Below are positions 4,738-64,000 of a DNA stretch of 64,000 bases, piece by piece. The translations under genes and the position numbers were made by a program. Source of the stretch: a virus; IMG/VR virus record IMGVR_UViG_3300042484_001840, positions 81,043-145,042 of that record; one strand, 5' to 3'. Under the pieces are notes generated by a model, which saw only the letters and a list, made by a program, of their open reading frames with translations, had not been told where the DNA came from and did no database searches. Position 1 is the first letter of the stretch, and each line of letters starts with the position of its first letter.

Positions 4738-5253
4738 TCAGACCCCCAACTCCTCGGCTAGTTGCTTCTGAGTCTTACCTAGGTGCTTCTTAGCGCACAC
4801 AGGGCCGACTCCGACACGATGACCGTAGCCATCCTTGTCGTCTAGTTCGGCACTACAGAACAAACAAACGCCCGTACGCACGCCGTACTCCATAGCGACG
4901 AGTGCGGTGACCTTTTCGGTTGGCGAGAGCAGGGAGATCGCTCCACGCTCGTAAATCCAACCGCTTTCGCCACGACGCATTGCGTAGAGATTGCCACCTT
5001 CGGATTGCTTCACCTTGTAGATCAAGTGACCGACGAGGTAGAAACCGACTTCGGTAACCTTCTCGGCAGGCTTGACTTCCGTAGCAGGCTTAGCCATAAC
5101 CTTGGCGAACATTGAACGGATAGCCTTTTCTTGCGCTTCGCTCAATGCGCCCTTGTTCTCAAAAGTCTTAGCGATTGAGATTGCGAACGCACTCCACTGT
5201 TGGGCTTTCGCCCATTCAATGACGGAAGTAATCGGGGTCAATGTGGTAGTCAT
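4738..5253 (-). CDS. DUF6011-like zinc-ribbon protein
   Basis: C-terminal CxxC...L...GxGPVC motif; promoter 5315-5287. Confidence 0.75.
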   Translation of the reverse strand: MTTTLTPITSVIEWAKAQQWSAFAISIAKTFENKGALSEAQEKAIRSMFAKVMAKPATEVKPAEKVTEVGFYLVGHLIYKVKQSEGGNLYAMRRGESGWIYERGAISLLSPTEKVTALVAMEYGVRTGVCLFCSAELDDKDGYGHRVGVGPVCAKKHLGKTQKQLAEELGV

Positions 5254-11331: not shown

Positions 11332-11499
11332 TCAGAACCGAGGTAGTTGGCTTAGGACATAATCCTCGGCACGGGTGATGTACTTAGCCGTAACAGCGCC
11401 TCGTGCTTTTCTATAAGCGAGGTCATAGATACGGTCAGCAACTTCAAAGCCATGCTTACGGATAAGAGCCTCGTAAAGTTCATTTTCTGAGAATGTCAT
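11332..11499 (-). CDS. small helical protein (MTFSENELYEALIRKHG...)
   Basis: AAGGAG RBS; -10 at 11536-11531. Confidence 0.75.
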   Translation of the reverse strand: MTFSENELYEALIRKHGFEVADRIYDLAYRKARGAVTAKYITRAEDYVLSQLPRF

Positions 11500-11595
11500 T
11501 ATTTTCTCCTTAGTAGTGGTGACAGATATAAGTATACACCCGCCGAGTGTAGAAACTACAACCATACGGTGTGTCTCTTGTCACACTACCTAACC

Positions 11596-11730
11596 GAACA
11601 GGTGTTCGCACGGAGACACCGAACAAGTGTTCCCCGAACGGGTGTTCGTACCGAACAAGTGTTCGCTTGATAAAAATACGCACCGACGCATAAAAATACA
11701 CCGAACAGGTGTTCTACGAACAGGTGTTCG
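11596..11730. promoter_or_regulatory. tandem array of six LexA/SOS boxes (CGAAC-N4-GTTC(G))
   Basis: CGAACaggtGTTCG 11596, CGAACaagtGTTCc 11620, CGAACgggtGTTCG 11635, CGAACaagtGTTCG 11652, CGAACaggtGTTCt 11702, CGAACaggtGTTCG 11717. Confidence 0.85.
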
Positions 11731-11816
11731 CTTGACAAATGTAGCCACATTACGGAGGGAATGTGGACACAATAAAAGCACAGAACTAGAACCGATAGCC
11801 CCGCTAGACTAAAGAT

Positions 11817-13724
11817 ATGAATGGGCAACTAATACTAGGAACGGACACGCTTGTTGCCGTGTTCCCGTACGATAAGGCGCAAGTTGCGCGGATCAGAACC
11901 ATACGCGGGGCTGTATGGGACAACGCATCTAAAACATGGCGGATACCCCTTACTCAATTCTCCAAGGCAACAGAATTGGCGTTGGAACTCGGCTGGTGGA
12001 TTAGCCCCGAAGTAGCAATGCTGAACATACCCAGTGAACCCGTGGACATGATGACGGTGAACAGCAAAACCGTGAGGCTTTCGTTCTCGTTTGACCCAGT
12101 AAAAGTGCGTGCGGTTAAGCGGATACCAGGCATAACTTGGGACAAAAAGACGGCATCGTGGGAAGCCCCGCTCTCGTCACTATCGGAATGTGCTGACTGG
12201 GCGAAGCAGTTTGACATGGAAGTAAGCGAAGATACGCAGACGCAAATATCAGAAATAACCGAAACCAGGTCAAAACTGATTGAGCAGTCAAGGCAAACCG
12301 ATGCTGACCTTGAAGTGGCGGGACTACCACTGCTTCCGTACCAAAGAGCGGGCGTGAAGTACGCTGCTGAGGCACGCAGATGCTTCATTGCTGACGACAT
12401 GGGACTTGGTAAAACACTCCAAGCAATCGCAACTCTTGAGTATGTTATGGATAGTTACCCCGCAGTTGTTGTCTGCCCACCCACGCTGGTACTGAACTGG
12501 AAGAACGAGTACAACAAGTGGCTACCAGGTAGAAATGTTGTCACGGTGAAGAACCGAAGCGAATTCCCAGACGGGGCTTATGATGTTGTCGTTGTTGGTT
12601 ACTCAAACATCAACGCATGGGCGAACAAACTCCAAAAGCACCGAAGTTATGTGTTTGACGAGTCGCATTACTGCAAAAGTGCTGATGCGCAGCGCACGAA
12701 GGCTGCCATCAAGATGGCGAAGTCGGCACCGAAAGAAGGAATTGTTCTTTGTTTGACTGGTACGCCCGTAACCAACCGCCCCGCTGAATACGCCCCGCAG
12801 TTGGACATGCTTGGAAAACTTTCTGATTTTGGTGGCAAATGGGGCTTTTACCGACGATATTGCGCGGCTTTCCGAGACAGATTTGGGCAATGGAACATCT
12901 CAGGCAACTCCAACTTGGAAGAACTCAACGACAGACTCCGAGGAAACTGTTATATCCGAAGAACTAAGGACCAGGTACTGGAAGAACTCCCACCCGTGCG
13001 TCACAACACGATCCTGATTGAAGGAACTGATGCGGGGCTGAAGGAGTATCGCAAGGCGGAAAACGACATCGTAAAATATCTAATGGAGCGTGCACGGCAA
13101 ATCGCTGAAGAACTTGGTGAATCACCGAACTCCGCTGCTGTGCGAGCAAAAATGAGGGCAGAACGGAACGAACATTTGATTCGCATCGGCGTTCTTCGGA
13201 AGTTAGCCGCTAAAGCGAAGATGCCCGCTGTTATTGAATGGGTTGATGGGCGCATTGAAGCGGGGCAAAAGGTGGTTATCGCCGCTCACCACCGTGAAAT
13301 CGTTGATGAACTTGCTCAGAAGTATGGGAACATAAAGATTCAGGGAGGCATGGATGTCAATGATGTGGAAGCAAACAAGAAGATGTTTCAAGAGAAAAGT
13401 GTCACAGAAAGCCCCGTTATCGTTCTTTCCATCCAAGCAGCGAAAACAGGTCACACGCTGACCGCTTCTCAAGATGTTCTCTTCGTGGAACTTCCATGGA
13501 CACCGAGCGATGTGGATCAAACTTACTCAAGATGCCACCGACTGGGACAAAAGGGCAGTGTAACAGCAACTTATCTGCTTTGTCAAGGAACTGTTGATGA
13601 AAAAATCTACGATGTCATTGAGCAGAAGCGTGGAGTTGTGAACGCTGCGACTGAAGGAACCGAAGTGAGCGGGGCTGGTGGAGAATTGTTTGACCATTAC
13701 CTCCAACTGTCAATGAAATACTGA
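11817..13724 (+). CDS. SNF2-family (SMARCAL1/HARP-like) helicase
   Basis: ADDMGLGKT, DESH, LTGTP, QTYSRCHRLGQ motifs; two N-terminal HARP-like repeats (IxGxxWDxxxxxW). Confidence 0.92.
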   Translation: MNGQLILGTDTLVAVFPYDKAQVARIRTIRGAVWDNASKTWRIPLTQFSKATELALELGWWISPEVAMLNIPSEPVDMMTVNSKTVRLSFSFDPVKVRAVKRIPGITWDKKTASWEAPLSSLSECADWAKQFDMEVSEDTQTQISEITETRSKLIEQSRQTDADLEVAGLPLLPYQRAGVKYAAEARRCFIADDMGLGKTLQAIATLEYVMDSYPAVVVCPPTLVLNWKNEYNKWLPGRNVVTVKNRSEFPDGAYDVVVVGYSNINAWANKLQKHRSYVFDESHYCKSADAQRTKAAIKMAKSAPKEGIVLCLTGTPVTNRPAEYAPQLDMLGKLSDFGGKWGFYRRYCAAFRDRFGQWNISGNSNLEELNDRLRGNCYIRRTKDQVLEELPPVRHNTILIEGTDAGLKEYRKAENDIVKYLMERARQIAEELGESPNSAAVRAKMRAERNEHLIRIGVLRKLAAKAKMPAVIEWVDGRIEAGQKVVIAAHHREIVDELAQKYGNIKIQGGMDVNDVEANKKMFQEKSVTESPVIVLSIQAAKTGHTLTASQDVLFVELPWTPSDVDQTYSRCHRLGQKGSVTATYLLCQGTVDEKIYDVIEQKRGVVNAATEGTEVSGAGGELFDHYLQLSMKY

Positions 13725-52438: not shown

Positions 52439-53155
52439 TTATACCAACTGAATATAGTTATATGTGCCAGGGTAAGCGCCATTAACGGAAGTGTAGACAT
52501 TTGCTGGCAAGGATGCTCCAGAGGAAATGACGATAATAACGCCTCCGCCACCCCCCCCTCCGCCTTCCGCAATAAAATTTGCTTTAGTTAAAGTATCAGC
52601 AGTACAGGCAATGTAACGAGCAGCACAAATAATCACTCCACCACCAAGTCCACCAGTTCCTCCAGCGCCACCTCGTAAATATGTGGGTCCACCACTGGCA
52701 GTTATTGAAAAACCACGAACAGCCTGATGAGGTTGTTTATAGTAATTAGCGCCACCTAGAGCACTTGTTGGTGCGGTTGCTGTTGCCGTGGAGCCGTTTC
52801 CACCAAGACTATGCGTAACAGAAACTGTCGCCGTGCCACCCTGTTGGATTGTTCCTGCCGTAGACCACCCCGTGCCATCAGCCCATCCAATACGCGATGC
52901 ATTACCAAGGGTTAATAGGTTTTGAACAAATATACGATAACCGTTAGGTTGGATTCTTACACTGTCACTAACAGACATGTTGTAACAATAAATGTCTCTA
53001 GTCAATGAGTACACACTAGAAGAAGGTGCCATACTTAAAATCGTCGTAGTGCCGTCAAAAACAACAGAACCATCGTCGCCAGTTCCATAAACAACATCTG
53101 GCGCGTCAAGGAATTGCGCCAATCCGTTTGAACCATATTTGACTACAGCAGGCAT
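52439..53155 (-). CDS. Gly-rich virion protein, paralogue of the N-terminus of 50574-52436
   Basis: Shared YGxGxDG..., GYxIFVxNxLTL. Confidence 0.78.
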   Translation of the reverse strand: MPAVVKYGSNGLAQFLDAPDVVYGTGDDGSVVFDGTTTILSMAPSSSVYSLTRDIYCYNMSVSDSVRIQPNGYRIFVQNLLTLGNASRIGWADGTGWSTAGTIQQGGTATVSVTHSLGGNGSTATATAPTSALGGANYYKQPHQAVRGFSITASGGPTYLRGGAGGTGGLGGGVIICAARYIACTADTLTKANFIAEGGGGGGGGVIIVISSGASLPANVYTSVNGAYPGTYNYIQLV

Positions 53156-53514
53156 CAGGTCTCCTCAATACCGACCACTGTCATATTAACAGATGTTGCA
53201 GAAGAACATAATGCCGTCAATTGGTCACTGTTTGTAGCGTTTGCTGTAGAGCCGTTGTTTGTCATAACCAAGGAACAGTTAAAGGAAATTGTCTCATTAG
53301 CCGCAATTGTCATTGCACTTAAAATATCGTGCGTAGCGGCTTCCGTGACATTTAATGGCTTGAGGCGAACTGTCACCGTCTTTGCTGCTGCCGTGGTATT
53401 TGTCAAAATAATTTGCTTGACGACTGTCGTTGTACTGATGGGGACAGTGTAGTACACGGCAGTTGAAGCCGTAAGTTGCGATGGTCCGACAAGTCTTTTC
53501 TGTGTTAAGGGCAT
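53155..53514 (-). CDS. virion structural protein
   Basis: YTVP..TTTVVKQI..N pattern. Confidence 0.75.
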   Translation of the reverse strand: MPLTQKRLVGPSQLTASTAVYYTVPISTTTVVKQIILTNTTAAAKTVTVRLKPLNVTEAATHDILSAMTIAANETISFNCSLVMTNNGSTANATNSDQLTALCSSATSVNMTVVGIEET

Positions 53515-56500
53515 TACATAACCTCCATTATAAATCTCATTTCAGCATCACGCACATTCGTTGTCAAAGCAACAGTACCAGTAGCATTGGGTAAAGTAAT
53601 TGTTCTATCGGCAGTTGGGTCAGTAACGCTTAGGGTTGTTTCGTAAGTATTCGCAGTTGCGCCTTCAAAAATAACTGAACCTGTTAAGGCAATATTGCCG
53701 TCAACATCTAGTTTTTCAGCAGGGTCGTATTTGCCAATACCCACACGATGGTTAGTAGCATCAACTTTTAATGTTGTGGAACTTATCCCAGCCCCATCAA
53801 CTCTTAGGTCTCCTTCTAATACAAGACCAGTTGAGGTGTCATATAAAAGGTTTGCACTGCCTGCGGGATTGTTTGAACTATCTTTGTAAACGACCTGATA
53901 CGCATCACCAGCAACAGGACCTGTTGCACCTGAGGGTCCCTGCGCTCCAATTGCTCCCTGCGGACCCGTATCACCTTGAGGTCCAGTATTACCATTTGTG
54001 CCATTCATGCCAGGATAGCCCTCTGGACCTTGTGGTCCAGTTGCACCCGTTGGTCCTGCTGGGCCTTGCGCTCCCGTTGCTCCCTGAGGTCCAGTATCTC
54101 CCGTTGGACCAGCATCCCCCGTGGCACCTGTTGGTCCTACTGGACCCTGCGCTCCCGTTGCTCCCTGAGGTCCAGTATCTCCCGTAGCACCCGTAGGACC
54201 CGAAGGACCCTGCGCTCCCGTTGCCCCCTGAGGACCTTGCGCTCCAACATCGCCAGTACGAGCAAAAGTAATAATGATGCTCTCACTATTACTAAACGCC
54301 GTAGCAGAACCTGAAACATACGAACAGTCAACATCAAAGAAGCCTGTTTCTTCCGTGACAGCAGAAATGGTAAACAAAGCAAAATCTGATGAATCAGCCT
54401 TATTAGAAATACGGAAGTGACCCTTTATCGTACTTGTTGAGTCGTCAATAGTTCTTAGATATGACTGAATGTCAGTTGCGTTGACATCAACATCGTCAAT
54501 TTTTAGTTCTGAAGCAAGACTGATGTTTGCGTTGCTGAATTTAAGTTTTCCTGTACCAGGATCGGTATGTGCTGTATCGGTATCAAATACATATTCAAAT
54601 GTGATTCCGCCAAAGTTGCCTTGGGCACCTTGTGGTCCTGTTGCGCCTTGGCTTCCTGTCGCGCCTTGAGCGCCCACATCACCTTGCGGACCCTGAGGAC
54701 CCGTAGAACCTTGTGCGCCAGTGGCTCCTTGCGAGCCAGTTGCACCTTGGCTTCCAGTTGCGCCTTGCGGTCCGACATCACCTTGTGGACCAGTCGCGCC
54801 CTGAGCGCCTGTAGCACCTTGTGGTCCAGTCGCCCCCTGTGCGCCTTGAGGTCCAGCATCACCTTGCGGTCCTGTCGCTCCCTGACTTCCAGTAGCACCC
54901 TGCGCTCCCGTAGCGCCCTGTGGACCTTGCACGCCCTGTGGACCCGTCGCCCCCTGAGCACCAGTGGCTCCTTGCGAACCAGTCGCACCCTGAGGACCAG
55001 ACTCCCCCTGAGGTCCTTGTGAGCCAGTTGCGCCCTGAGGTCCAGTTGAACCTTGCGCACCTGTAGCCCCCTGAGCGCCAGTTGCACCCTGAGGTCCTTC
55101 AGGTCCCTGACTGCCAGTAGCGCCCTGTGCTCCAGTACTACCCTGAGGTCCTGTCGCTCCTTGGGCACCCTGACTACCCGTTGAACCCTGTGGTCCAGTA
55201 CTGCCTTGCGGACCTTGGGCACCCTGTGCGCCCATTTCTGCAATAAGAGTCCAGAATGTTCCTTCTACGGGCGTATCGCCAGTGTTGCCCCCATTTGCAT
55301 TAATGCGGTACCAAGTCTCGCCGTTATATGTGGCAACATCACCAATCGCATAAGAAGATCCAATATTGTACGCACCAGTAAAATTCCATAAGGCGTTAGC
55401 CCCCTGTGGTCCCTGAGCGCCCTGCGGACCAGTACTGCCCTGTGGACCCGTACTTCCTTGAGGACCCTGCGAACCCGTAGCACCCTGACTACCAGTTACT
55501 CCTTGAGCGCCCGTACTACCCTGCGGACCAACATCACCTTGAGGACCAGTCGCACCCTGACTACCCGTCGCACCTTGCGCTCCAGTTGCTCCCTGAGGAC
55601 CTTGCGCTCCTTGAGCGCCTTGAGGACCGACAGCAGTGGTAGGAACAAACTTGGTGCCATTAAAAACTAGGGCTTGAGCACTTGTTGCGCCAGTCGGGTC
55701 AATCTCAATACTGTCAACGGTCAAGGTACTTGAAGACAATGCTCCAGTAACTGTAAGTGATGTTGCATTTCGTGAGCCGTCTGCAAGAAGGTACTGAGTA
55801 TGGTCGTCGTCGCTAAGACCAGTGAGAGAACCGTGGTCAGATACTGGCTCTGTTGGTACGCCACCACCAGAAACAATAGAGCGCACATCCGTTACAGCAA
55901 CAAACGCTGCACTTGGCGTATTTTCAAATGAATTTTTACACTCATAAATAATTTTATAAAGAGGTCTAAATTCAACAATAGGGAACCCAGCCAAGTCTAG
56001 GTCACTATAAATAGCCGCTTCAGCAGCGCTCTTTTGACCATAACTATTTTGACCAAGAATTGAAATTACTGGATAGTTAAGATTGTTAGTAGCAATGATG
56101 AATGACACACCAAAATAGTTGTTTTGAACATCAACGGTAGACCATGTACCAGCAGTATTTAAGTTATACCGAGGGCGAGATGTACCCTGCTTTAACGGGA
56201 ATTGTGTTGGCGCATCATGTTTCCAATGCGCATTAGTGCGATAAAAAACAGGGATTTCAGCAATACCTTGAAGAACTTGTTCCCAAGTATTTGCTGTAGG
56301 TGTATTTGAATGTGTGATGTCAACTTGTAAATCTTCATCAAAGAAAGTTCCGTCAGCGATATCTAGTTGAGCGTGAGAATCTAGCGAACCATTACCATCA
56401 AGAATATAGTTGTTCGCGCCAAATCCGTTGGCGATAGCCGCGCCACGAGTTCTGTGAAGATACTCGTGTGTTTGCCAGTCAAGAACAATGCCGTGGCGTT

Positions 56501-57131
56501 CATCAGCAAAGAAGTATGCTTTGTTGTCTACTTCATTCCAGTAAATATATGCGGTAGGGGTGTCGTTTTCCCAATCAAAATATGATGTGCGATACGAAAG
56601 AACACCAGTATTGCTGTAATAAATATAGTAAAGACCACTCGTGTCAGGAATGTCAACAGTTTCCGTAGTTGTTTTCGTATATTTGACACCCTTGCACCAG
56701 ACTTCAAATGATGCTGAAACTGGGGAGATTGAGAATCGTCGGTTGCCTTCATCAAAAGCAATAGTGCTTTGCGACTTATCAGTATGACCAATTGGTTCTC
56801 CACCAGGAAGATTGACTGGGGCAGTACCTGGAGCGAACTTAGTACCGTTATAAACAAGCGTGTTGCCTGTAGCCGCACCAGTTGTATCTACTTCAATACT
56901 GTCAACATAAAGCGTAGGAACTTTAAGGGTGTCGTCAGTCTTTAAAACATTGGCAGAGTCACGATAAATGTTGGTATCAACAGCATCAGTTCCATTACCC
57001 CACGAAATTTTTCCGCCAGCATCAATACTGAGGCGAGGATTAGCATCACCATTAACGCCAACATCTATGGCGGTGTCTGCTGCTGTACTAAAAAATCGTG
57101 CGCGGATAGCCGCGAAAAACTTGTTTGCCAT
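53514..57131 (-). CDS. collagen-like tail fibre protein (1205 aa)
   Basis: Long ([12 protein letters not shown])n blocks; [14 protein letters not shown] fibre motif. Confidence 0.9.
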
Positions 57132-57174
57132 TGAGCCTCAACTCAAAATAGGTGACCCCGCAAGGTCTATAATT

Positions 57175-58512
57175 TTAGCCTGTTACTACTACTCGGTAAG
57201 AAGAAGCACCAGGCGCGACACTGAAAGTAACTTGAACTCTGTTGACCGAGGACCGAACAACATCTGTAAAAACAGTGTCGTACGAGGCTGAGTCAAAAAC
57301 TTGAACTGTGACATCGCGCGTATTGAAGTTGTGGTCAATATCAAATGTTGTCGCAACGCCAGTTACTGTTTGCGAAGCAACACGAGCCAATGCTGGGGTG
57401 TTGGTTGTGCCTCCAGTGATGTCGCCAGCAAGGTTAGTTCGTGCGCCACCAGCAGTACCTGAGCCAGTACCACCATCTGCGACAGCAATATCAGTGCCGT
57501 TCCATGTACCAGTTGTGATGGTTCCAAGGGTTGTAATTGTTGCTTGACCAACATAGTTAGTTGAAATGTCAATTGCGTCAGACGAAACAGAAATACGGTT
57601 TTCTGTTCCGACGGCATCAATTTTGTTACCGTCTTTAGTTAAACCGTTTCCAGCAATACTTTGACCAGCAGATGAGAACTGAACGAAAGTGAGGTTGGTC
57701 GTATTGAGGGTGATAGTGCCGTCTGTTGTAAGAACCCAACCCGAGTCAGACCATGCTGTTCCTTGCTCAATAAAAACAAACAAGCCCGGCGTAACTTCAG
57801 ATGATGCGTTAGCGTCTGATGCTCGTGTTAAGACCCAAGGGTTTGAACCGTCACCAGCGTCAGTGACAGTGTAAATACCGTTATAGGGGGCATTGCTGGA
57901 AGTCTCATTTTTGACAAGGATACGAACACCCTCATCAACACCACGAGTCAATGTCGTTCCGTCAACAACTAGAGCGGCGTTTGCCGATGCTGTCAAAACA
58001 TTAGATAAGAATGTGTATCCAGACAAAACAGCGTTAGTTGCCAATTTTGCTGATTGCTTGACATCTAGACCCGAGCGAGCAGCATCAACATATGCTTTGT
58101 TGGCTGCGTCAAGATCATTTTCTGGTGCCGTTACCTGTAGGCGACCATTAGCATCTCGCACTGCCAAGGTTCCGTTTGTATTGGATGCTGTGGCATTATT
58201 TAATAGGGTGTAAAAAGCACTCGTTAAAAGACCAGCGTTGCTTCCGTCAGCAAGGTTGAGAGTGAGGGTGATTTCCCCCGCGTTGCTTTCGCCAACCGTC
58301 AGGGCGCTAGCGTAAGTTCCAGCGGATGTAACGCCATTGATAAGCGTTTCCCAAGCCGCACCTGTGTAGTATTTTACAGCATCGTCGCCCGTATGGTAAA
58401 ACATACGACCTTCAAATAGGTTGCTATCAGGATTAGCGCCAAGTTTTTCAAATGTACCATTTAGAATCTGATTGCTATTCAGATCTAAATTTGTAAGAAA
58501 TTTTGTTGCCAT
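57175..58512 (-). CDS. tail fibre/virion protein
   Basis: DAANKAYVD, RILVKNE...NGIY...LTRASD, AVADGGTG. Confidence 0.82.
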   Translation of the reverse strand: MATKFLTNLDLNSNQILNGTFEKLGANPDSNLFEGRMFYHTGDDAVKYYTGAAWETLINGVTSAGTYASALTVGESNAGEITLTLNLADGSNAGLLTSAFYTLLNNATASNTNGTLAVRDANGRLQVTAPENDLDAANKAYVDAARSGLDVKQSAKLATNAVLSGYTFLSNVLTASANAALVVDGTTLTRGVDEGVRILVKNETSSNAPYNGIYTVTDAGDGSNPWVLTRASDANASSEVTPGLFVFIEQGTAWSDSGWVLTTDGTITLNTTNLTFVQFSSAGQSIAGNGLTKDGNKIDAVGTENRISVSSDAIDISTNYVGQATITTLGTITTGTWNGTDIAVADGGTGSGTAGGARTNLAGDITGGTTNTPALARVASQTVTGVATTFDIDHNFNTRDVTVQVFDSASYDTVFTDVVRSSVNRVQVTFSVAPGASSYRVVVTG

Positions 58513-58524
58513 TGAATTTATCCT

Positions 58525-59010
58525 TTAGGTCAAATACGCATAGCCCGAAAAAGGCGCAGTAAAAGATACACGCACCTGAGATGTACTTATATATGATACT
58601 TCCCCAATAACCGTTGTAGATGCAGTATCAACCACAGTTACGCTTGGATACCCACCTAGGGTGTGATTAATGGTCCATGTGGAAGATGCTGATGCCTGAG
58701 TATGAACATGACGAGTTGTTGCACCGGGGATAAAAAATGGAGATGCAGGCCATCCTGACGATGTTTTTGGTCCCCATAATGAACTATTTGTAGTATTTAC
58801 ATATATTTCACCAACTCTGCCAATGTTGGAGGTCGGGTTTGTGGTTCCAGTGACAATTCCAAGACCCTTTGACCCCGAAATGCCAACTAACGAAACAAGG
58901 ACATTAGTAGTTTCCTCATTTACGGAAACAAGGTTGCGTAACTGGTCGGGGGCATTCTCAATATTTAGTTTTGTTACTTCTTGGACTACCGAGACATTGA
59001 CATCGGTCAT
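58525..59010 (-). CDS. virion structural protein
   Basis: WGPK..GW; WTINHxLGxYPSVTVVD. Confidence 0.78.
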   Translation of the reverse strand: MTDVNVSVVQEVTKLNIENAPDQLRNLVSVNEETTNVLVSLVGISGSKGLGIVTGTTNPTSNIGRVGEIYVNTTNSSLWGPKTSSGWPASPFFIPGATTRHVHTQASASSTWTINHTLGGYPSVTVVDTASTTVIGEVSYISTSQVRVSFTAPFSGYAYLT

Positions 59011-59354
59011 CTAGTGACCTCTAATTCAAGTTTTATTTTACCTTTTAAGATGCGAAACACTCTACTTTGTGCGTCAACGATCTCAATGTCGTACACGCCA
59101 TCCGAAGTCATCAGGGCAGTATCCGCGGCAAGGATAACTAAAGTAACTGTACCTTCATCGCCACCGAGTGTAATTCCACCATTTGCGGTGGTTAGTGATT
59201 TGACGATAGTAGAAGAGTCAATTTCTGTTCTAATTTGCATACGAGCGGTAAAGCCCGTCAAATCATATATTGAATCATCGGAATTAGTTATAGTTACAAC
59301 ACGCTCAAAATGAGCGCCCTGGTCAATTGTAAAGTTATAATTGCCAGCAAGCAC
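59007..59354 (-). CDS. baseplate-upper/adaptor-like structural protein
   Basis: IDQGA...DLTG.TARMQIR...VYDIEI; GTG start after GGAGG. Confidence 0.75.
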   Translation of the reverse strand: MLAGNYNFTIDQGAHFERVVTITNSDDSIYDLTGFTARMQIRTEIDSSTIVKSLTTANGGITLGGDEGTVTLVILAADTALMTSDGVYDIEIVDAQSRVFRILKGKIKLELEVTR

Positions 59355-59476
59355 ACTAAACCTCCAAAACAATGGCTACAACTAATTCTAGCCCTAAATG
59401 TGACAGTTTTACAGCATATAAGCAAACGGAGCGGTCAGGAGGGTACCGCTCCGTTGCTCTCCTTGTCGGGAGGACC

Positions 59477-59743
59477 TTATTCTTCGTCGGTATCTTCGTC
59501 TAGGTCATCATTATCGCTATAAAAGAATGATGCATCTAATTCTCTAGTCATCATAATTTCTCTGGCACAATCAAGCATTCCCGTACCAAGCCAAGTAGTC
59601 ATCCCATCGGATGTCCCAAGGTGAAGGTCGCGAGAATCATTATCAAGTACTTCGGCAATAATGATCCAGTTTGTGATCATTTGCTCTGGGAACGCCTCGG
59701 ATATTAGACCCTGTAGATCTTTATCATCGTAAGGATTTCCCAT
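59477..59743 (-). CDS. acidic hypothetical protein (W...GML motif)
   Basis: ORF, probably leaderless (TAAAAT 6 nt upstream). Confidence 0.7.
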   Translation of the reverse strand: MGNPYDDKDLQGLISEAFPEQMITNWIIIAEVLDNDSRDLHLGTSDGMTTWLGTGMLDCAREIMMTRELDASFFYSDNDDLDEDTDEE

Positions 59744-59788
59744 TTATATATTTTAGCAGTCAAATGAGACTAAAGAATTAAACTAAAA

Positions 59789-62596
59789 TCATGCCTGTAC
59801 AATGAAAATCTTTCCACCACTAGGTCCAGTATCCCCAACGGTGTATGACCGATAAGCCAAAAATGAGCGTACAGGGCGTACAAAAGCATTTGTTGTTTTT
59901 GTTTGACCATTTAGACTACCAGTATCTATTCTTTGCGTCCATGCCAAGGATGAACTGTTGAGGTACTCAGTTGAAGTCCAGTATGCGCCAGTCTGAAGGT
60001 CACCAATAGCCTCCCTCTGAATACGCAATTGAGCAAATTCATCCTTTGATGGCAAAAACCAGTCAGAATAACCGCCATAAACTAAATCTGCACAATACGC
60101 AGAGGCGTTAGTTGACGCAACACCACCAGTATCAGCAATGATATCTATTGTATTTTGCGCTCCAGTACCAATAGCAACGCCATCAGCGGCAGTCAGTCCC
60201 CCAGTATTCGCAACAATAAATGCCTCATCTAATGAGCCATCACTATTTAGGCGAGCAATAAAGTCAGTTATGGTAGTGCCAATTGTTACAAAAGTACCAC
60301 CAATAATAATTTTTCCACTAGACTGAATTTCCACACCTTGGACACCCGCACTAGGAGTGCCATTGCCAATGAATGATGTGTCCAATGAGCCATTGCTATT
60401 CAGACGAACAAGATTGTTTGCTGTCGTGTCATTGAATGCAGTAAAATTTCCACCTACAACTATTTTACCGTCAGACTGAATTCCCATATCATAAACACCA
60501 AGAGTTGCAGTAAATCCAGTACCAGCATTTGTAGTAAATGCGGTATCTAATGAGCCATCGCTATTCAGTCTTGCAATTCTATTTACGGTAGTCCCATTGA
60601 ATGAAGTTATACCGCCACCTACTAATATTTTACCATCAGACTGAATTTGTATTACAAAAACAGTGTTAATAAATCCAGTACCAGCAGCGGCAACGAAATC
60701 GGTGTCTAATGAACCACCACTATTTAGACGAGTTAAATACCTTGTAGTAGTTCCATCAAATGTAGTAAAATATCCACCTACAACTATTTTACCGTCAGAC
60801 TGAATTTTAATTGCTGAAACAATGTAATTAAATCCAGCACCAGTAGCAGTATCAAAATCAGTATCTAATGAACCATTACTATTTAGGCGAGTTAAATAAT
60901 TTACGGTAGTTCCGTTGAATGTAGTAAATTGACCACCTACAACTATTTTGCCGTCAGACTGAATTTCAATTGCTTCAACAACGCCATTAAATCCAGTACC
61001 AGTGTTAGTTGTAAAAGTTGTATCTAAAGTGCCATCAGAATTTAAGCGAACAATACGACCTACGGTAGTTCCATTGAATGTCGTGAAAGAACCACCTACA
61101 AGTATTTTTCCGTCAGACTGAATTGCTATATAACTAACGGAGTGACTAAATCCAGTACCAGTAGTAAACGAGTTATCTAATGAGCCATCGCTATTCAGGC
61201 GAATTAAACAATTTACAATTATATTATTGAATGAAGTAAAACCACCACCAACAAGTATTCTTCCGTCAGACTGCGTTTTAGTTATATAAACGACCAGATT
61301 GGCACCCGCCTCAACCACACCAGAAGATGGTGCCCAAAGTCTAGTTACTTCTTGAGAGGCTGGCGCAACTTCAAAACATGTTATTGGAGTAAAAAATTCC
61401 TTACAGATGTGTTGAATCGTAAAACCCATTGGGCGTGATTTTTCTACAGCATTAATCACTGTCTCGGAGTCTTCTAAGACAACCCCACCTGGAGTTTCCG
61501 ATGTATATGTTTCAAGGGTAATAGTCCACGGGTTGACAATTGGATCTACTATATAATTTACGGTTTTCGTGCCAGTAAGAACAGTTTGAGCAGATTCAAT
61601 GATTGCAGTCTTTGTTCCAGCGTTGTGACCTATTCTTGCTGTCGTAATCTGATCTCGTCGCCCTTGGACAAAGTTGTTGTCAGAAGTATCGTATGACTCA
61701 ATTTCATCCCAATCCGCCGTAGCGTTACCGTCAGCAGGATCGTCTATTAATGATACAAAAGAAGCCCATGTAGTTGGCAAGTTACCCCACGGAGTAGAGC
61801 CACCAGCAGATTGACTGAGTTTTGTGCCAACAATCTGGGCAAGCCAAGGAAGGAATTCCTTGTTCGCTACTTGTGGTTCAACTAAAGAACTTTTTGTTGA
61901 GTTGTCCGTTGCGTCATATCCGCCATCAATATCCAAATAGGGGAATGAGTCAAGTTCGTCAACTGCCTTACCTGCATAAGCCAAACCAACATCCATGAGC
62001 CTTAGCATGGGGAAATTGGGCGCTGTTTGCTCCGAGTCTTTTTCTATAAAAAATACTGGCATCCGTTCCATGCACATACGCAAAAAGAGGTTATTTCTAA
62101 TTGCATAGGTGTTAGTCAAAACTGGGTGGGCTAAATAAATTGCTGAGTTATTGTGATTTACAATTTGGATTGTTGTGGTGAAACCAGTATTTCCCTCAGT
62201 TGGGGGGACTACGATCTCTGGTCCACGAACAATTCCCCATGTGAGGGCGTTTAATACTGTTGTGACTGAACTGCTATCGCCATACGAAGAAGTGACAGTT
62301 ACGGTTGCGGTTACTTTAGACTCACAATAGATGCGACCATAAAATGTAATGAAGTCATTCTTGTACGAAGATGGTAATTGAATCTGTTCGTGTTGTAATG
62401 TTACTTGACTAGAGGACGATGGGGTCACCTTTAGCGTATGGTATTGATTTTTAAATCTAAATGAAAAATCAACACTTGATGTTCCATTTGTGGTTTGCCA
62501 AGTTCCAGTAGATGTATTGAAATAAAAATCTTCTGGATCAAGTAAATTTCTACAACTACCACTTAGGCTTTCCGCAGCATCAGAACTAGTAGCCAT
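59789..62596 (-). CDS. baseplate wedge/tail protein fused to delta-60 beta-propeller repeats and DUF1566-like module
   Basis: FLPWLAQIVG (gpI-like); about 7 QSDGKIxVGGxF...RLNSDGSLD repeats; DWFLPSKDE...VRPVRSF. Confidence 0.82.
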   Translation of the reverse strand: MATSSDAAESLSGSCRNLLDPEDFYFNTSTGTWQTTNGTSSVDFSFRFKNQYHTLKVTPSSSSQVTLQHEQIQLPSSYKNDFITFYGRIYCESKVTATVTVTSSYGDSSSVTTVLNALTWGIVRGPEIVVPPTEGNTGFTTTIQIVNHNNSAIYLAHPVLTNTYAIRNNLFLRMCMERMPVFFIEKDSEQTAPNFPMLRLMDVGLAYAGKAVDELDSFPYLDIDGGYDATDNSTKSSLVEPQVANKEFLPWLAQIVGTKLSQSAGGSTPWGNLPTTWASFVSLIDDPADGNATADWDEIESYDTSDNNFVQGRRDQITTARIGHNAGTKTAIIESAQTVLTGTKTVNYIVDPIVNPWTITLETYTSETPGGVVLEDSETVINAVEKSRPMGFTIQHICKEFFTPITCFEVAPASQEVTRLWAPSSGVVEAGANLVVYITKTQSDGRILVGGGFTSFNNIIVNCLIRLNSDGSLDNSFTTGTGFSHSVSYIAIQSDGKILVGGSFTTFNGTTVGRIVRLNSDGTLDTTFTTNTGTGFNGVVEAIEIQSDGKIVVGGQFTTFNGTTVNYLTRLNSNGSLDTDFDTATGAGFNYIVSAIKIQSDGKIVVGGYFTTFDGTTTRYLTRLNSGGSLDTDFVAAAGTGFINTVFVIQIQSDGKILVGGGITSFNGTTVNRIARLNSDGSLDTAFTTNAGTGFTATLGVYDMGIQSDGKIVVGGNFTAFNDTTANNLVRLNSNGSLDTSFIGNGTPSAGVQGVEIQSSGKIIIGGTFVTIGTTITDFIARLNSDGSLDEAFIVANTGGLTAADGVAIGTGAQNTIDIIADTGGVASTNASAYCADLVYGGYSDWFLPSKDEFAQLRIQREAIGDLQTGAYWTSTEYLNSSSLAWTQRIDTGSLNGQTKTTNAFVRPVRSFLAYRSYTVGDTGPSGGKIFIVQA

Positions 62597-62597
62597 A

Positions 62598-64000
62598 TTA
62601 AATGCTTTCTGTGGTTACGGAAGAGACGGGGAGCGTGCCTTTGAAGTTGAAAACAACATTGCCAGAAACATCTACTGATGCAAGTTCACTACTATTTGCA
62701 TTGACACTCATTGTGAATGAGTCAACATAGTCAACGCCAGAAATTTGAGAAACATCGGCAATCATCTGATTTTTACGAATTTGTGTTGTAAAAGGATATT
62801 CAGATGGAGATAAATAATTAGTTAAATATGAATCTATTTCTGTTCTAACATCAAGTGATGAATAGCCTTCAATGACGGCAACTGAAACCGTAACTGAAAT
62901 GTAAGCAAGAATAACATCGGTAATAGACACATCAAGACCACCAATGCATCTTGAAGCGATATCGTCAGCAATTACGCCCTTTTGTTCTGCCGTTAGACTA
63001 GCGCCAGTTGAATCTGATAAGAAAATTGTAATAGCGCCAGTCTGTTCAGCAGCATCAAATCGTACTGTGTCCAAGATCTCCACCTGAGGTGACTGCCCAC
63101 CTACGGTGGTTAGAACGGTAGTTGCCGCTCCAGTATAAGAATATTCAGCAACTACGCTTCCACTAGCAACTACACTTGCATTAGTGCCTGAGATGCCCCA
63201 AATGGTTTCATAATCATTAATCCCAGTATTTGTAACTCGGACCGTTGAGGCTGCGCTCATAATGGGAAATGAGGCTGTTGGTAAGGTATAAAAACTTTCG
63301 CCAGTTGAAGTATATTTAATGGCATCATAGCCAGTTCCAGTATTGGCGAAGACTGCCCGTACTACGCCTGCCGAGTACCTACCAAGTGAATCTGCCTCTA
63401 ATTTAACCAAACGAGTCAAGTCATATGTTTCTACACGGTAGGTGTCAGAGTAATTCGTCAAAATATAGTCTGTTGTCTGCGATGCCGTAGCCAATGAACG
63501 ACTAAGACTTCCGAGGTATGTCCGTGTACGGCTAAAGAATTCAGCGTCTGTTTCCGTTGCCTCACCTTGAACTAAGGTTCCATCAAATTGTGCGTCAATT
63601 AATTTGACAATTGGACTCAAAATTGTCAAAACTGTTCCATCAGCAATAACTGGTTTTGCGCCAGAAGTAATTGCCTTTACCTGCGTTGAAGCCGACTCCG
63701 TATCCCCGCTGGCAATAGTTACTGATGCCGTGGTCTCAAAGATATGAAGGACCACTTGGTCGTCAGTAGTCTCGTAGTATCCAACTTGAGTTCCAGCAGG
63801 AATCGTCAAGCCAGAATCATCAATTGCCGAAAAGATAACAGCACCAGAAGCAAATGTTGACTCAAGGCGATACATGCCCATGACGCGGAGCATTCCCTCA
63901 ATGAGGCTATTTGGAAGCCTATTGATCGCCCCTGTGACGAGACCTGAGACATACGCCATTGCCTGAAGCATGGCATCTTCCACGGTTCCTGTTCGTGGGT
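62598..64000 (-). CDS. baseplate J-like protein (5' end outside window)
   Basis: TIPAGT, G...ETDAEF..R, I.GVDYV motifs. Confidence 0.82.
   Translation of the reverse strand, partial: PRTGTVEDAMLQAMAYVSGLVTGAINRLPNSLIEGMLRVMGMYRLESTFASGAVIFSAIDDSGLTIPAGTQVGYYETTDDQVVLHIFETTASVTIASGDTESASTQVKAITSGAKPVIADGTVLTILSPIVKLIDAQFDGTLVQGEATETDAEFFSRTRTYLGSLSRSLATASQTTDYILTNYSDTYRVETYDLTRLVKLEADSLGRYSAGVVRAVFANTGTGYDAIKYTSTGESFYTLPTASFPIMSAASTVRVTNTGINDYETIWGISGTNASVVASGSVVAEYSYTGAATTVLTTVGGQSPQVEILDTVRFDAAEQTGAITIFLSDSTGASLTAEQKGVIADDIASRCIGGLDVSITDVILAYISVTVSVAVIEGYSSLDVRTEIDSYLTNYLSPSEYPFTTQIRKNQMIADVSQISGVDYVDSFTMSVNANSSELASVDVSGNVVFNFKGTLPVSSVTTESI

Follow-up and report, generated by a model that had tools for sequence, protein, structure and literature searches.

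To our knowledge, nearly all phages known to use LexA are temperate, and in them it triggers induction. Repression is tight and released late at the colicin operon and at the E. coli recN and lexA promoters, where two or three SOS boxes adjoin or overlap, and a cluster of binding sites, E. coli datA, titrates DnaA. The LexA of M. tuberculosis, whose boxes have the consensus TCGAAC-N4-GTTCGA, binds to four of them in the lexA-Rv2719c region (PMC3381160), and the LexA motif of S. venezuelae reads tCGAAC-N4-GNNCGa (PMC9380542). Host LexA also acts on a phage in the tectivirus GIL01 of Bacillus thuringiensis, where it occupies tandem boxes at promoters P1 and P3 alongside the co-repressor gp7 and the LexA homologue gp6 (PMC4551915, PMC6182141). 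Virulent phages read other host regulators, through Spo0A sites in phi29 and CtrA sites in alphaproteobacterial phages, under the heading of 'lytic deferment' (PMC9437464), and it is well established that decoy sites can titrate a regulator (PMC3322331, PMC8599769). In the literature we searched, to which subscription journals did not belong, we found no description of LexA-box arrays in actinophages.

Here we describe such an array in a 64,000-nt stretch of viral DNA (the window), positions 81043-145042 of a viral record of 145,042 bp (98% complete). We propose, at roughly even odds (about 0.5), that its six repeats are operators for the LexA of an actinobacterial host and form an SOS-sensing multi-operator at the early control region. 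The record also carries a direct terminal repeat of 11,341 bp (99.63% identical; window 52660-64000, which is genome 133702-145042, and genome 1-11341) and is classed as linear without end repeats despite it; the unique genome length is therefore ~133.7 kb.

Six LexA-type boxes and their surroundings

An earlier note on this DNA had pointed to six copies of CGAAC-N4-GTTC(G) within 135 bp. Our counts bore this out: the window holds 12 strand-matches to CGAAC-N4-GTTC against 0.40 expected, none of 100 shuffled sequences reached 12, and the six boxes account for 10 of the 12. The repeats are CGAACA-NN-TGTTC(G) palindromes spanning 11595-11730, with start-to-start steps of 25, 15, 17, 50 and 15 bp. 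Three of the six read as perfect CGAACA-NN-TGTTCG and the other three carry one mismatch; elsewhere in the 145,042-bp genome only one site has at most one mismatch (genome 77941; 0.45 expected). The boxes, from left to right, are:

11595-11608, no strand assigned: LexA-type box 1, CGAACAGGTGTTCG, perfect, 20.4 bits, with an ortholog in relative L033
11620-11633, no strand assigned: LexA-type box 2, CGAACAAGTGTTCC, one mismatch, 17.0 bits, its unit duplicated in relative L006
11635-11648, no strand assigned: LexA-type box 3, CGAACGGGTGTTCG, 20.0 bits, starting 15 bp past box 2
11652-11665, no strand assigned: LexA-type box 4, CGAACAAGTGTTCG, perfect, 19.0 bits, starting 17 bp past box 3
11702-11715, no strand assigned: LexA-type box 5, CGAACAGGTGTTCT, one mismatch, 19.1 bits, starting 50 bp past box 4
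11717-11730, no strand assigned: LexA-type box 6, CGAACAGGTGTTCG, perfect, 20.9 bits (the best in the genome), starting 15 bp past box 5

Tested as LexA-type half-sites, all six boxes showed zero or one mismatch over 10 half-site positions. The outermost T and A of the operator are replaced by C and C/T in the phage boxes; since position 0 is T in only 42% of host sites, these outer bases fall inside the host spread. Every box shares the asymmetric centre RG. Bit scores came from a matrix of 155 boxes upstream of actinobacterial lexA genes, whose LexA may not be that of the phage's own host, and the phage boxes (17.0-20.9 bits; median of the host boxes, 19.3) outscore every other site in the genome. 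Circularity affects this matrix in part, at the half-sites, but not at the flanking A/G and T/C positions, where the phage boxes fit as well. We rejected a coding repeat on the irregular spacings, since steps of 25, 17 and 50 bp disrupt any reading frame, and an RNA element because the region has no credible Rfam match.

As the earlier note had stated, the array lies between divergent genes: a non-coding stretch of 317 bp (11500-11816) parts a leftward gene of 55 aa from a rightward helicase gene. The note had called the latter a SNF2/HARP helicase. Its SNF2 part is clear (2.3e-27), and the N-terminal HARP match was weak (0.0042) and below the cut-off. After the helicase, the rightward unit continues with two SLT-like genes, DUF932 and SSB. 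The features around the boxes are:

11332-11499, minus strand: 55-aa gene, first of the leftward unit, with no Pfam match, found only in the window and in L006/L062
11531-11561, minus strand: leftward early promoter cassette, with -35 TTGTAG at 11556-11561 and -10 TATACT at 11531-11536
11570-11585, no strand assigned: CRP-like palindrome TGTGTCTCTTGTCACA, 9 bp left of box 1 (8 nt to its flanking C)
11666-11701, plus strand: AT-rich spacer of 36 bp from box 4 to box 5, a decayed early promoter cassette
11738-11751 and 11760-11773, no strand assigned: two AATGT-N4-ACAWT palindromes between the array and the helicase
11805-11810, plus strand: -10-like hexamer TAGACT, 6 nt before the helicase ATG at 11817, without a Shine-Dalgarno sequence
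11817-13724, plus strand: SNF2-family helicase gene, first of the rightward unit (Pfam SNF2-rel_dom 2.3e-27, Helicase_C 2.2e-08)

On the helicase side, TAGACT probably marks the start of a leaderless transcript, and TAGACT-N6-ATG is preserved in L006 although the flanks differ. The note's placing of this hexamer at 11805, its distance of 75 bp from the last box and a TTGACA abutting the array were all accurate. The TTGACA lies at 11732-11737, one base after box 6, and we rejected it as a promoter because no -10 stands at 16-18 nt in either the window or L006. The two AATGT-N4-ACAWT palindromes are the only ones in the genome (0.6 expected), are both retained in L006 despite diverged surroundings, and may be the operator of a different regulator. 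We also observed a heptamer, CGGGGCT, whose 43 copies are confined to the 32-kb early region, where ~4 would be expected; the remaining 113 kb has none. Its range covers window positions from about 1197 to 22947 and genome 72089-81042; it often occurs as GCGGGGCTA, and several copies have TCCGCCACCGTC ~20 nt upstream. Some copies are found within the helicase gene and one at 11797, in the interval from array to helicase.

The nearest recognisable promoter points left, to the 55-aa gene. It belongs to a cassette present in ~25 copies in the early region, TTGTAA-N17-TATACT followed by a leader ACTACTA..AAGGA, in which the 17-nt spacer contains TACAC; the copy at the array has a 19-nt spacer with TACAC, and the leader ACTACTAAGGAG after its -10. 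In the window and in relatives L119, L065, L020 and L076, the order on the left side is cassette promoter, CRP-like site, LexA boxes, and in these four relatives the last LexA box is fused to the CRP-like site as GTTCTGTGAC. The CRP-like TGTGA-N6-TCACA is centred ~53 bp before the start of the cassette promoter at a fixed distance in the window and the same four relatives. In the comparison with L033, the site forms a conserved island.

A second cassette, in decayed form, lies inside the array. The 36-bp spacer, which contains ATAAAAATAC twice, has TTGATA at 11667-11672, TACGCAC within a 17-nt spacer and then ATAAAA; an early cassette, TTGCAA-TTGTTACGCACAACCTG-TATAAT, has TACGCAC at the same place. 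The -10 of this decayed cassette is poor, its -35 reads ATTATA in L006, and the whole stretch is missing from L033. A sigma-70 scan of the spacer returned one weak match, equal at best to those in shuffled sequence.

Host lexA control regions and the likely binder

To place the boxes among host operators, we searched prokaryote genomes, one for each species, for pairs of boxes 15 bp apart and obtained at least 120 loci. These chromosomal loci were mostly from Actinomycetota (among the matches listed: Acidimicrobiia, Demequina, Saccharopolyspora, Actinomyces and others), and 52 of the at least 120 loci carried 3-6 boxes with spacings conserved within lineages. Among the matches listed, a lexA start lay within 300 bp of the array at 41 of 120 loci, at 38 of the 52 loci with three or more boxes, and at 14 of the 15 arrays of 5-6 boxes. 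All seven loci that we checked had Pfam LexA_DNA_bind and Peptidase_S24, with a LysM gene or nrdR divergent from it. Finding the same tandem boxes upstream of the lexA genes of actinobacterial hosts supports the earlier assignment of the repeats as LexA-type operators. The accompanying statement that one to three copies are usual fails for Actinobacteria, in which the lexA control regions found here have 3-6 boxes and the published M. tuberculosis region has four (PMC3381160).

Spacings at the host loci followed their lineages. In Acidimicrobiales (L145, L164, L197, L207, L182, L150, L169, L172), five boxes lie upstream of lexA at steps near 15, 31, 30 and 46, and Demequina and its relatives carry a three-box array with spacing 52, 15. 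The right part of the phage array, in which a 50-bp step leads from box 4 to boxes 5 and 6 at 15 bp, resembles this 52, 15 module of host lexA.

The gene content of the phage points to an actinobacterial host: three of its genes match WhiB above the Pfam cut-off, a level that Corynebacterium alone reached among the controls. The actinobacterial setting that had been proposed is thereby supported. In the phage collection, the best matches of the helicase protein reached at most 35.9% identity and were mainly from Arthrobacter phages, and a near-identity DNA search of the same collection gave no match. The ribonucleotide reductase matched viral clusters only in the protein atlas and the SSB metagenome proteins only, so neither gave a host pointer. 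We found no Phage_integrase or Resolvase (tyrosine or serine recombinase) in the phage genome, and the phage does not class as temperate, with a plasmid-type prophage being possible.

Judged from the match of the boxes to host operators, host LexA is very probably the protein that binds the array. A phage-encoded mimic might take its place, as truncated gp6 does in GIL01 (PMC6182141), and both this precedent and the same asymmetric RG centre throughout the array would fit such a protein. So would a 94-aa protein with a LexA_DNA_bind domain only (E 3.2e-13; G003:C1:22678-22857), encoded by G003, a 72-kb phage with eight boxes (the record with L032). However, neither LexA_DNA_bind nor Peptidase_S24 gave a match in the present genome, even at E up to 1, and LexA_DNA_bind was absent from 10 of 11 other array-bearing records. 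Since the phage genome has no LexA_DNA_bind domain, binding by a phage protein is unlikely here. The genes that flank arrays fall into 138 unrelated groups among 180 proteins, box centres vary between phages while half-sites stay constant, and tandem duplication explains a centre shared within one array. Taken together, we consider a mimic quite improbable.

Conservation of the array and its spread among viruses

We then compared the array with those of relatives. In L006, whose helicase is 99% identical, there are eight boxes rather than six, the extra two being a ~30-bp insertion in a run of 15-bp units that left the half-sites intact. In L033 (helicase 65% identical), an orthologous five-box array has the same base as the window at 39 of 40 half-site positions and an identical 17-bp step from box 3 to box 4, and divergence shows in the flanks and between boxes 1 and 2. 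Such variation in copy number among near-identical phages is what a selfish or neutral tandem repeat with no function would show, but half-sites that survive 35% protein divergence while spacers decay, and a motif and spacing that reappear in unrelated phages and at host lexA, make this explanation the least credible of those we considered.

The link to the helicase, as the earlier note had drawn it, stands as adjacency and is weak as a regulatory tie: no box covers TAGACT-N6-ATG, and 2.6-6 kb of DNA with other genes separates the array from the helicase in relatives L033, L025, L020 and L065. In L004 (80% identical helicase), L007 and L008, no box was found within about 4 kb of the helicase. 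We therefore rejected the helicase as a conserved target of the array. By comparison of these sequences, the conserved trait is the place of the array at the divergence point of the early region, and no link with the helicase promoter is conserved.

The single additional box of the genome occupies a different position. This seventh box, CGAACTAATGTTCG (genome 77941; 77941-78324; locus L248 1942-2325), lies 3.1 kb before the window start. Only 4 nt separate its end from the ATG of a gene without a Shine-Dalgarno sequence, which encodes an HA-domain (PF03457) protein of 121 aa. The box covers TAATGT, a -10-like hexamer of this leaderless gene. Relatives G001 and G010 carry the same 14-mer in surroundings that differ. 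The conserved footprints in L006, in L033 and at the seventh box argue that the lineage is really wired to LexA.

Arrays of this type are widespread in IMG/VR, where at least 111 viral contigs match the pattern of two boxes 15 bp apart; at least 51 have three or more boxes, at least 29 four or more and at least three have eight. A looser scan that allowed any gap from 0 to 30 bp gave three or more boxes at 37 of 114 loci among the matches listed. The contigs range in GC content from 0.35 to 0.71, and the centres and flanks of their boxes vary around constant half-sites. We found no lexA-like gene at the 111 viral loci listed. WhiB was present in 23 of 32 array-bearing records, including all eight of those at least 90% complete, and no integrase or Resolvase was found in the 11 most complete array-bearing records, eight of them complete. 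We dropped a sorting of array flanks as divergent, tandem or convergent from ORFs only, because it mis-called the window's own relative. In one complete, high-GC phage of 171 kb (L250, G005:C1:29300-37300), 17 perfect boxes and one near-perfect box lie within 8 kb, as singles and arrays, many of them followed by a repeated word, gggccgaatgacctat.

Viral arrays also keep company with DnaA-like boxes, which occur at 2.27 per kb within 200 bp of the arrays and at 0.29 per kb elsewhere in the same loci, an eightfold difference. In unrelated contigs (L078, L029/L111, L084/L080), the last LexA box and the first DnaA box are fused as GTTCTGTGGATAA, and in L033 the array continues directly into a DnaA-box array. 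The junctions are:

L078, about 1364-1430: LexA/DnaA junction
L029, about 1182-1250: LexA/DnaA junction
L084, about 4954-5020: LexA/DnaA junction
L033, 3350-3480: LexA/DnaA junction

At the GTTCTGTGGATAA fusions, binding of LexA and of DnaA would probably be mutually exclusive. These fusions, together with an AT-rich spacer that repeats ATAAAAATAC and the position of the array at a divergence point adjoining the helicase and SSB genes, would suit a platform for replication control, on which LexA occupancy would gate DnaA loading or local unwinding so that replication follows the SOS state. Against this, the AT-rich spacer is missing in L033 and resembles a decayed promoter cassette, and no initiator gene was found; the repeats match a host repressor site, where an origin of the iteron type would have sites for a phage initiator. 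We judge such a platform improbable, if somewhat less so than a mimic. The coupling of the arrays to DnaA-box arrays keeps some role in replication control conceivable.

The same coupling bears on another explanation, that the array was selected to soak up LexA and not to control its neighbours. A replicating phage genome would then present hundreds of near-consensus sites, draw LexA off host promoters and turn on recA and the SOS genes without damage; such a sink may act jointly with the phage's DnaA-box arrays. Several observations are consistent with it: the boxes do not overlap clear promoters, all six are near consensus, slippage of the 15-bp unit changes their number (6 versus 8), integrases are absent from the 11 most complete array-bearing records and the phages are apparently lytic, 17 perfect boxes crowd into 8 kb of the 171-kb phage, and DnaA-like boxes are enriched around viral arrays. 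Yet equally dense arrays at host lexA serve ordinary regulation, the seventh box covers a -10 in the manner of a classical operator, and the array of the relatives stays at the divergence point, with a CRP-like site and a promoter as neighbours, a constancy of place that a sink does not need. We regard titration of LexA as rather unlikely, although it is the foremost of the alternatives. A shade less probable is the joint form, in which LexA arrays and fused DnaA arrays act as DNA-encoded sinks that strip the host of both its SOS repressor and its replication initiator. If it were true, recombination and repair genes would be turned on and host replication initiation halted with no phage protein needed, a counter-host strategy written in non-coding DNA and common to many lytic actinophages.

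A proposed SOS-sensing multi-operator and its known counterparts

We favour the multi-operator reading over these alternatives because the layout mirrors a region that hosts use for ordinary regulation, because the regulatory neighbourhood of the array is fixed in relatives, because the 50-bp gap contains a decayed promoter and because the seventh box is the one clear case in the lineage of a LexA box over a promoter. In an undamaged cell, LexA dimers would occupy the 135 bp between the leftward early unit and the rightward helicase-SSB unit, with dimer pairs 15-17 bp apart, as at the host's own lexA promoter. RecA-driven self-cleavage would remove LexA and free the region, and its transcription would change. 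This could happen by either of two routes, in which loss of LexA would open the neighbouring CRP-like activator site of the leftward promoter or free the weak cassette-type promoter between box 4 and boxes 5-6. With 6-8 near-consensus sites, occupancy would be tight and release late and steep. LexA binding itself, the promoter affected and the direction of the effect are what we infer in this scheme.

We counted several findings against an operator function. No box lies over the -35 or -10 of the only clear promoter, the centre of box 1 being ~76 bp upstream of the leftward start, and none comes closer than 75 bp to the helicase TAGACT. In the gap promoter the -10 is poor and L006 has lost the -35, phages with 99% identical helicases have six boxes in one case and eight in the other, and the distance from array to helicase varies in relatives. 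Moreover, this phage has no lysogeny genes, and its gain from LexA repression is therefore not obvious.

Under either reading, LexA arrays of up to eight boxes occur in apparently virulent actinobacterial phages, including abundant uncultured aquatic lineages. If the boxes are operators, these phages would tune their early or replication programme to damage of the host's DNA, such as sunlight might cause in surface waters; as sinks, they would let non-coding phage DNA rewire the host SOS response. The array could serve as a sequence marker of regulatory coupling between phage and host, with a motif that hints at the host phylum of uncultured phages, and as operator or as sink it would be simple to test in model actinobacteria.

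Among described systems, the lexA-Rv2719c cluster and the GIL01 boxes are the closest in function, and the Spo0A and CtrA sites in logic. The lexA-Rv2719c (LysM/chiZ) region of M. tuberculosis (PMC3381160) has the same half-sites and the same divergent intergenic setting as the phage array, and actinobacterial lexA regions share with it several boxes, a tandem step of 15 bp and a module in which ~50 bp is followed by 15 bp. They differ in that the phage region has neither lexA nor LysM and carries 6-8 boxes (counting relatives), all near consensus, without visible overlap of core promoter elements; of the four boxes in M. tuberculosis, three depart from the consensus at 2-3 positions. In GIL01, as proposed here, host LexA on paired boxes of the Gram-positive type controls phage genes, there for replication and later functions. 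GIL01, however, is temperate, with a prophage in the form of a linear plasmid, and its promoters contain two boxes each, while this phage and 11 other array records lack an integrase, arrays reach eight boxes, and no gp6-like protein was detected here.

The phages with Spo0A or CtrA sites resemble this one in being apparently lytic and in carrying sites for a host master regulator in the early region; the present case differs in the regulator, LexA, in the host phylum and in having tandem arrays instead of single promoter sites. The operators of the colicin operon, recN and lexA have another motif (CTGT-N8-ACAG) and two or three boxes that always lie over the promoter. datA and decoy arrays, natural or synthetic (PMC3322331, PMC8599769), are like the phage array in their dense high-affinity sites, in having no obvious tie to a promoter and in a copy number that rises with replication, but the phage array keeps a fixed regulatory neighbourhood, and the effect on the LexA pool is a proposal made here. 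What differs from all of these is an array of 6-8 sites, in non-integrating actinophages, joined to sites for other host factors.
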